A stretch of 64,000 bases of DNA. Source: Eledone cirrhosa. Lineage: Eukaryota. The stretch spans positions 80,104,001-80,168,000 of the forward strand of contig OZ024746.1 of the NCBI GenBank assembly GCA_964016885.1, read 5' to 3'. This document shows positions 9,325 to 55,669 of this stretch, one piece after another. Each line of letters starts with the position of its first letter. Within the stretch, counting starts at the first letter, position 1. A program made the position numbers and the translations under genes. The notes under the pieces were generated by a model. It saw only the letters and a list, made by a program, of their open reading frames with translations. It was not told the origin of the DNA and searched no databases.

Positions 9325-9756
9325 ATGGAAAGTTATATTTAAAATTGTTGGGTTACAACTAGTAAATATTTATAACTGATATAAAAGCACTCGACAAATA
9401 TTTGGAGTATATTTACAATATTAAATAAATGGAAACTATATTTATAAAACCATATTTATTTCATTATATATATTTCGGGGATATCATATTAACAATATGC
9501 TATGCCTTCCTCAGACAAAATACAATATAAACAGTTTTATATATAAATAGATTCGACATACCGTTATAACACCGACTTGCATTTGAAGAGGTTAAGCTGG
9601 CATTTGAAGAGGTTAAACTGCCAGCTTAACCTCTTCAAATGCAAGTCGGTGTTATAACGGTATGTCGAATCTATTTATCTATAAAACTGTTTATATTGTA
9701 TTTTGTCTGAGGAAGGCATAGCATATTGTTAATATGATATCCCCGAAATATATATA
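9325..9756. mobile_element. Penelope-like pLTR fragment, family A, fold-back
   Basis: Near-perfect inverted arms 9465-9602 / 9619-9756; homologous to 32450-32635 and 41620-41822; embedded in TA; contains hammerhead motifs. Confidence 0.7.
9457..9522 (-). ncRNA. Type I minimal hammerhead ribozyme motif (family A)
   Basis: TATTTTGT-CTGAGGA-stem II(...CATATT gtt AATATG...)-GAAA-TATATA-TA/ATGAAATA; stem I pairs with G.U; A.C at 10.1/11.1. Confidence 0.65.
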
Positions 9757-52954: not shown

Positions 52955-53110
52955 ATTGAATAGTTTTGCAGAATCGTTAGAGCGTCCTTAGAATTTCTTG
53001 CGGTATGCGTTCCAGTTCTTTGAATTCTAAGTTCAAATGCTATCGAGGTCGACCTTGCCATTTATCCTAACGGGATCGATAAATAAAGTATAAATGCAGT
53101 ACTGAGGTTG
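52955..53110 (+). mobile_element. Old SINE family 1 relative (others: 49595-49710 +, 56690-56855 -, 60200-60355 -, 63093-63190 -)
   Basis: agttcaaat...gaggtcgaccttgccatttatcc...gatcgataaataaagta. Confidence 0.65.
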
Positions 53111-53886
53111 ATTCTTCTCTTTCTTTCAGTATTTTATACGTAATGTTGGAGGGGTTGGTATGATGTTGGTGGTGGTGATGGTGGTGGTGGTGGTGGTGGA
53201 GCTGGCGGTGGAGGTGGTGGTGGTGCTGGTGGTGGTGGTAGTGAGGTGGAGGTGGTAGTGGTGATGGTGATGGAGATAGTGGTAGTGCTGGTGGTACTAT
53301 TGATGTTACTGGCGGGGCAATAGAGGCGGTGACTGTAAACGTGTTGTTTGAGACTGATGGTAATGACGTTGGTAATACTGGTGATGGTGGTTGCGAAGTG
53401 ACATTGCAGTATAGTGCGAATTACAGTCAAATGTTGACATATCGAGTAAAGAAAAGCAATGATGTCTTTGAGTGCAAGAGACTAAGAGAGAAACAATGCA
53501 AGTGACTAAAATCTGTTTGTTTTTGCTTACTTAACGATATGTACGTCGAACCAGTAGAGATAATGGTATCAGTTGAGTAAATATTGACACAATATTATCT
53601 TTATGAGAGAATAACATGTCTCCCCAGCTCTCATTCTCTCTTCTCTCTCTCTCTCTCTCTCTCTCTCCCCTTCTTCTCACTCACTTCCCCCTCCCCTTTC
53701 TCTCCCTCTATCCGCCCTCTCTCTCCTCTTCTCTTTCTCTCTCCCCTTCTCTCTCGCCTTTTCTCTCCCCTCTCTCTCTATCTTCTGCGCTCTCTCCTTT
53801 TCTCCCTCTCCCCTTCTCTCTCTCTCTCCCCTTCTCTCTCTCCCCTCTCTCTCTATCTTCTGCGCTCTCTCCTTTTCTCCCTCTCC

Positions 53887-54206: not shown

Positions 54207-54294
<88 letters not shown>

Positions 54295-54561
54295 GGAAAA
54301 AATGAAACGTAATTTCATTTCTCACTCTTAGTACGGCTGTTACTTAAATATAAGTATGTACACGTACATACTTATATGTATACAGACGTACAGTAGTATG
54401 TATATATATATACATACATGCACACACATATATATATATGTACGTATGGATTCACCGAACATTTATTATAATGCTCGGTGTGTTTGTAAACAAACATCCC
54501 GAATTAAGCCGTACAGTGTCTAGCAACCATCGTTGCTCATTTGTTCAACACTGACAAAGGA

Positions 54562-54604
54562 ACGCTGTACTAGTTTCAAGCTTATTAGGTATCGTCAGCA
54601 ACGT
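54562..54604 (-). ncRNA. Minimal hammerhead motif (family F, mirror copy)
   Basis: Same as 54997-55039 with one stem II mismatch. Confidence 0.6.
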
Positions 54605-54996
54605 ATACCTTCCTGTCAGATGGTTGAACGTCTGAAATTATAAACTTTCCTTATGCATATTAACGGCTGAGCAGCCTAATTTGCATATCGAGTGAGTTAA
54701 TCGGCCGGGGTACCGAAAACGATAAACGGAAAAAATGAAACGAAATTTCATTTCTCACTCTTAGTACGGCTGTTACTTAAATATAAGTATGTATACGTAC
54801 ATACATATATGTATACAGACGTACAGTAGTATGTATATATATATATACATACATGCACACACATATATATATGTAGTATCGTTTTCGTTACCCCGGCCGA
54901 TTAACTCACTCGATATGCAAATTAGGCTGCTCAGCCGTTAATATACATAAGGAAAGTTTATACTTTCAGACGTTCAACCATCTGGCAGGAAGGTAT

Positions 54997-55039
54997 ACGT
55001 TGCTGACGATAGCTAATAAGCTTGAAACTAGTACAGCGT
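54997..55039 (+). ncRNA. Type I minimal hammerhead ribozyme motif (family F)
   Basis: ACGTTG-CTGACGA-T-AGCT aata AGCT-T-GAAA-CTAG-TA/CAGCGT. Confidence 0.72.
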
Positions 55040-55246
55040 TCCTTTGTCAGTGTTGAACAAATGAGCAACGATGGCTGCTAGACACTGTACGGCTTAATTC
55101 GGGATGTTTGTTTACAAACACACCGAGCATTATAATAAATGTTCGGTGAATCCATACGTATATATATATATATGTGTGCATGTATGTATATATATATATA
55201 CATACTACTGTACGTCTGTATACATATATGTATGTACGTATACATA

Positions 55247-55320
<74 letters not shown>

Positions 55321-55627: not shown

Positions 55628-55669
55628 GTCACTGAGGAATCACAAAATGTGTGACGAAAGAACTTTGAC
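55628..55669 (+). ncRNA. Minimal hammerhead motif
   Basis: GTCA-CTGAGGA-A-TCACA aaatg TGTGA-C-GAAA-GAAC-TT/TGAC. Confidence 0.6.

Follow-up and report, generated by a model that had tools for sequence, protein, structure and literature searches.

The 64,000-nt window analyzed here (Eledone cirrhosa, contig OZ024746.1, positions 80,104,001 to 80,168,000) contains, in self-comparison, a direct repeat spaced by 433 nt and an inverted repeat of 380 nt at 96% identity. This raises the question of what kind of element left this layout and by which machinery it was copied. In our best explanation, to which we assign a probability of about 0.82, the locus belongs to a non-coding, hammerhead-bearing 433-nt repeat that was likely copied into (TA)n in trans by the RT/GIY-YIG endonuclease of a coding Penelope-type element (PLE). 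The ends of the repeat match Penelope-type ends, and it therefore likely spreads via their enzyme.

An initial annotation had described a retrozyme-like 433-bp unit in partial tandem with an inverted copy, a terminal redundancy of about 150 bp, one hammerhead per unit, and no ORF. The alignments in Table 1 bear out the layout and the redundancy. The hammerhead motif indeed recurs in each arm, the minus-strand copy carrying a stem II change that is private to it and failing the motif scan. The longest ATG frames on the two strands of a natural unit, when reading continues over its junction, span 49 and 53 codons, in agreement with the stated absence of an ORF. No match to any of 25 PLE proteins from the same genome and no ORF for RT or GIY-YIG were found in the window. 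A 117-codon stop-to-stop frame at 53067-53420 (minus strand), rich in Pro and His, lies over a trinucleotide repeat and is probably no gene.

Table 1. Features of the insertion and its flanks (window positions; q, unit numbering)
Feature	Position	Strand	Description	Basis
Full unit	54291..54723	-	433 nt, q1-433; stops at long 3' end	BLAST of unit on window
Partial tandem	54724..54872	-	q287-433, 149 nt, 96.6%; 5'-truncated upstream copy, pseudo-LTR-like	BLAST
Joint	54873..54877	.	between two 5' ends	
Head-to-head arm	54878..55256	+	q1-379, 379 nt, 96.3%; short 3' end merging into (TA)n	BLAST
Tail	54291..54344	-	54 nt between both fixed 3' ends; with 18-nt near-palindrome	
Tail, second copy	54724-54777	-		
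Unit-internal TA/CA-rich tract	54345..54447	-		
Unit-internal TA/CA-rich tract, plus-arm copy	55154-55256	+		
Hammerhead, type I	54972..55058	+	extended helix I; intact	motif scan, fold, covariation
Hammerhead core	55003-55009	+	motif span 55003-55033	
Stems II and III		+	stem II 3 bp, closed by U.U; GAAA at 55024-55027; stem III palindromic	
Cleavage triplet GUA	55031-55033	+	predicted cleavage after A55033	
Second hammerhead	54543..54629	-	one stem II pair lost through G>C at 54589; predicted cleavage after 54568	
ATGCAAAT word	54915..54922	+	present in both subfamilies; candidate promoter element	sequence
Left flank	54211..54290	.	(TA)n followed by (GA)n; likely target tract	
Right flank	55257..55316	.	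(TA)n; likely target tract	

Units are numbered q1 to q433 in the hammerhead sense, which for the full unit of the window is the minus strand, from 54723 down to 54291. Because this sense is minus in the tandem part and plus in the inverted arm, both outer ends of the insertion are 3' ends, and two 5' ends meet in its center. The candidate promoter word in the plus arm is one which we take to be octamer-like. The long end in the window adjoins (GA)n (54258-54290) rather than (TA)n directly, in which it differs from nearly all other sampled long ends.

The repeat is abundant. A 34-nt core occurs in 5,665 exact copies in the 3.0-Gb genome (reversed control, 0), and a looser pattern, with matches to this core removed, hit a further 12,634 sites; of the 100 such sites listed, almost all belong to a sister subfamily of 466-502 nt with about 75% identity. 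Three samples of loci were examined: the best BLAST hits and, from the start of contig 1, the earliest matches to the core and to the tail, respectively. Units measure 420-433 nt (38% GC in one unit), their 5' truncation points are scattered, and tandem arrays of 10 and about 50 units are present. Units deviate from the column majority by approximately 2%, which indicates a young family. The unit and its variants are also represented in contigs from four sequencing runs whose type is not recorded, which are uninformative on expression. Searches of an open-access library turned up no published account of the family or of such a tail footprint in any retrozyme, which does not prove absence.

Further arrangements and repeats were noted. 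One complex cluster (L203:3072-6829) consists of alternating direct and inverted units that recur at a spacing of about 1,460 nt. A separate 310-nt tandem hammerhead family (L108:1640-2260, L060, L144, and L145) lies beside the 433-nt family in TA tracts; its loop II and U.U closure are as in the 433-nt unit, and the letters of stems II and III differ. Another short TA-flanked element (L047 and L086:5300-5660) has a terminal hairpin resembling the near-palindrome in the tail of the 433-nt family.

Among 160 arms, 129 have their 3' end at q373-380 or at q423-433, two sites about 55 nt apart, and TA lies directly beyond 105 of these 129 canonical ends. Exact junctions of the long end with (TA)n number 3,946. 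Head-to-head pairs numbered 58 in a first sample, in which two loci were counted twice, and 38 in a further sample; 27 pairs with a non-canonical end (17/58 and 10/38) were excluded. One long and one short end were combined in 38 of the 41 remaining two-armed insertions of the first sample and in 25 of the 28 further pairs, giving 63/69 (p=2e-13 against 50:50), with 6/69 breaking the rule. The window insertion obeys it. Single arms ended at the long site in 20 cases, at the short site in 19, and elsewhere in 7. Published accounts of PLE insertions describe a partial tandem, a truncated copy lying next to it in inverted orientation, and a tail on one of the ends (PMC8557442; PMC3846280), and both a 5'-truncated partial tandem and an adjacent inverted 5'-truncated copy are present here.

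The coding PLEs of the same genome leave a comparable footprint. From 10,597 GIY-YIG candidates, 150 were scored and 35 fetched, and six coding families that combine an RT with a GIY-YIG domain at the C terminus were recognized, five of them with the cysteine linker described for Neptune and Nematis. In families A, B, and C, too, copies stop at two sites and run into (TA)n, with spacings of about 63, 50, and 41 nt, respectively; when opposite-strand pairs were inspected by eye, 11 of 13 combined a long and a short end, L088 and L092 having been set aside as unclear. The unique part of the 433-nt unit has no sequence match in the six coding families sampled, pLTR included; family B comes nearest to it in hammerhead shape and tail length, again without a sequence match. 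Several loci proposed as partners (L086, L087, L256, L247, and L239) were rejected as neighbors on TA-rich ground or as separated from the repeat by unrelated sequence. Copies of the 433-nt repeat stand tail to tail with coding-PLE ends in the same (TA)n tract at L003, L110, L125, L215, L239, L247, and L255. The 3' regions of families A, C, and D (L076, L081, L092, and L093) carry hammerhead-like sequences with U3-A8 replacing C3-G8 and a palindromic stem III. One family A copy (L076:4309-7122, minus strand) retains a 938-codon open frame, and has an upstream pLTR with a tail that continues into the 5' part of the ORF.

In vitro work offers a biochemical counterpart. As reported for a purified lizard PLE protein, reverse transcription begins at two internal sites bracketing the tail, and in AT-rich DNA the protein nicks both strands and extends them (PMC11167929). 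This two-site priming would account for the 3' ends of the 433-nt family. The same report states for PAc that unprocessed RNA is preferred, that insertion proceeds without a need for cleavage, and that start sites in vitro do not differ between the strands (PMC11167929). The near-strict long/short pairing in the octopod genome suggests a coupling of the two priming events, one that was not seen in the in vitro study. We propose that tandem loci are transcribed across the unit junction, that the PLE protein introduces a nick in a (TA)n tract and starts cDNA within the RNA at either of the two sites bracketing the tail, and that, where both target strands are used, one is primed at the long site and the other at the short site. 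Joining of the two truncated cDNAs head to head would then have given the insertion in the window.

The initial annotation had read the circularly permuted unit as a sign of a circular or tandem RNA. The permuted unit is confirmed; a circle is not required, since the coding families leave the same permutation and inverted arm, an ordinary PLE insertion footprint. It had further proposed that the unit may seed TA/CA repeats. This is borne out in part: between anchors the internal tract mostly measures 36-46 nt, and in 21 of 313 copies it is longer than 60 nt. The (TA)n tracts of the flanks, on the other hand, are more likely targets than products, because unrelated PLE families also end in (TA)n.

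The hammerhead assignment is based on motif, fold, and covariation, given that Rfam yielded no hammerhead match in 54880-55150 at E<=10; for the window, the Rfam matches listed comprised only low-complexity microRNA, with one chance snoRNA match locally. The motif scan produced 0 or 1 match per shuffled window in 20 shuffles. A hammerhead-compatible fold lies 1.4 kcal/mol above the minimum, with helix I reaching about 24 pairs. Over 64 copies, 96% of cells are paired, a level reached in 0 of 500 shuffles, and the pair q123:q159 is U.G in 56 units, G.U in 33, and A-U in 13 (102/107 in total). Double changes occur at only 2 of 29 pairs and the copies are related, so that the covariation amounts to a few events. 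Columns of the catalytic core vary less (23/1346, 1.7%) than columns elsewhere (773/29475, 2.6%; p=0.018), and sequence variation provides modest evidence that the hammerhead is under selection in source copies. A palindromic stem III is described as typical of hammerheads thought to act as dimers (PMC4209133), and the present hammerhead would likely cleave only as a dimer via its palindromic stem III. At least two hammerhead regions are spanned by 11 of 152 tail-selected arms. The window locus has one hammerhead per arm, not two consecutive complete ones, and, being unable to release a monomer, is probably a dead-end copy and probably not a source copy; Li et al. call retrozymes "active" when two consecutive units carry complete hammerheads (10.64898/2026.07.22.740005). 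Four further type I hammerhead motifs, at 9465-9514 (minus), 32536-32585 (plus), 41671-41719 (minus), and 55632-55665 (plus), belong to other repeat families, with relatives in 6, 14, 32, and 16 sampled locus records, respectively.

What served as template is best approached through arm lengths and haplotypes. A cleaved linear monomer as the main template was rejected: 54 of 152 tail-selected arms are longer than one unit, and the cleavage site is not enriched for 5' ends (3/152 at q156-162 against about 2.5 expected if uniform; among TA-joined 5' ends, 9 there compared to 16 at a control position). A transcription start at q119-130, hinted at by 11 of 160 ends in a partly hammerhead-selected sample, was likewise rejected, with only 5 of 152 tail-selected ends there. 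At polymorphic columns, 50 of 511 cells (10%) differ within inverted pairs, compared to 45% between loci, and both arms of the window carry the same 1% allele, which points to one molecule or one source locus. The template thus exceeded one cleaved monomer; a tandem transcript that had not been cleaved is most likely, and a circle is possible. The latter would correspond to the classical retrozyme cycle, in which RNA cleaved by the hammerhead is ligated into a 433-nt circle whose rolling reverse transcription supplies most new copies, a variant of our explanation that differs in the template and that we consider possible though less probable. Arms longer than one unit and a haplotype mostly common to the units of one insertion are in its favor, as are an extended helix I that would hold the cleaved ends together, a circular fold with z=-6.7 (partly owing to the TA/CA tract), and the circRNA reported for mussel retrozymes of 350-390 nt (PMC7229834); dimer-dependent cleavage would, in the model, free monomers able to circularize. 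Yet the haplotype mosaics seen in some insertions (L058, L116, and L124) are impossible from one monomer circle, coding PLEs leave the same layout, and PAc inserts without cleavage, as cited above. The 2- and 4-unit higher-order repeats of the long arrays also speak against it, and a rolling-circle origin of these arrays is disfavored, as equivalent higher-order units differ by 0-6 letters and neighbors by 10-24; the arrays likely grew later through local DNA duplication. An uncleaved tandem transcript explains sharing, mosaics, and arrays, and circles may contribute.

Two further readings dispense with an independent retroelement. That all copies are mere truncated ends (pLTRs) of a coding PLE outside our sample had been named beforehand as a refutation of the initial annotation, and this reading is now largely refuted and very improbable. 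The order of the unit, upstream region, hammerhead, and tail, is that of a pLTR, for Xenopus retrozymes pLTR matches are reported in 24 of 57 families (10.64898/2026.07.22.740005), and the coding families were sampled in part (150/10,597 candidates scored). Against this, the tail leads into q1 in 5,196 exact copies of the q433/q1 junction. In 19 places of the genome, q1 is not preceded by the letter usually found upstream; all of these are mutated junctions, inverted arms, or TA tracts, and none has PLE coding sequence upstream of q1. PLE protein matches were found in 15 of 240 family locus records (overlapping records included), and the eight on the same strand upstream are 373-2,871 nt away and belong to several different families. 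The abundance of the q433/q1 junction also disposes of locus-specific slippage as the source of the redundancy. The other reading, a satellite or microsatellite-linked repeat spread by DNA-level recombination with the hammerhead as a relic, appears to us the least credible. The higher-order repeats do reflect amplification at the DNA level, and the hammerhead motif is still intact in only 66 of 119 tail-selected units; most copies, however, are dispersed and 5'-truncated, end at two fixed 3' sites, and follow the long/short rule, and helix I covaries between the subfamilies. The proposal of a non-autonomous hammerhead retroelement is thereby upheld, with thousands of copies and none of those sampled joined to a coding PLE.

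By sequence criteria, the best reading of the family is a non-autonomous PLE-type element that is a non-LTR retrozyme, with copying in trans likely proceeding through target-primed reverse transcription. Non-LTR retrozymes have been delimited as low-GC tandem repeats of 150-450 bp (PMC7229834; 10.64898/2026.07.22.740005), a range that includes the 433-nt unit. They are further described as having neither a primer-binding site nor a polypurine tract, and longer TSDs where TSDs occur. In the published descriptions of metazoan non-LTR retrozymes (PMC7229834; preprint 10.64898/2026.07.22.740005), a non-coding unit of a few hundred nucleotides with low GC and a type I hammerhead likewise occurs in dimers to long arrays and thousands of copies, together with PLEs in the same genome. 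Unlike those elements as described, copies of the 433-nt family are mostly short and dispersed, with inverted arms and a tail, its stem II has 3 bp and is closed by U.U instead of G-C, and it shows no pLTR match among the six coding families sampled, whereas some retrozymes are reported to resemble pLTRs. With endonuclease-bearing PLEs, as characterized in PMC8557442 and PMC3846280, it shares the partial tandem, the inverted 5'-truncated copy, the tail at one end, the two 3' ends, the AT-rich or (TA)n targets, and a hammerhead that lies upstream of the tail and has a palindromic stem III. It differs from these accounts in lacking an RT or GIY-YIG ORF, in a tail of about 54-57 nt compared to 30-40 bp, and in that its tail is followed by its own q1 start, not by an ORF. 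Chlamys MRC1 (PMC8557442) is described as similarly non-coding and pLTR-forming, with head-to-tail insertions and a dependence on coding PLEs, which for the 433-nt unit is our inference; MRC1-type elements share 3' sequence with an autonomous family, for which no counterpart was found here, and in their description lack the hammerhead that the 433-nt unit carries. An origin from or mobilization by PLEs has already been proposed for animal retrozymes from co-occurrence, hammerhead type, and pLTR similarity (10.64898/2026.07.22.740005; PMC7229834). Hence, the 433-nt family joins a known group and defines no new class. What it adds is a PLE-specific tail footprint on retrozyme copies, common to the coding families of the same genome and present in countable numbers, and a short natural RNA for testing PLE mobilization of retrozymes and coupled priming.

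It is tempting to go further and regard the family as an independent ribozyme parasite holding no sequence of a living PLE, copied by the PLE protein through structure alone, with the two strands always primed one per site on a single RNA or an RNA dimer, although we consider this bolder claim doubtful. If true, the insertions would provide, for the first time, direct evidence from footprints that animal retrozymes are moved through target-primed reverse transcription by PLEs, and the 433-nt RNA would offer a minimal substrate for work on the second-strand step.
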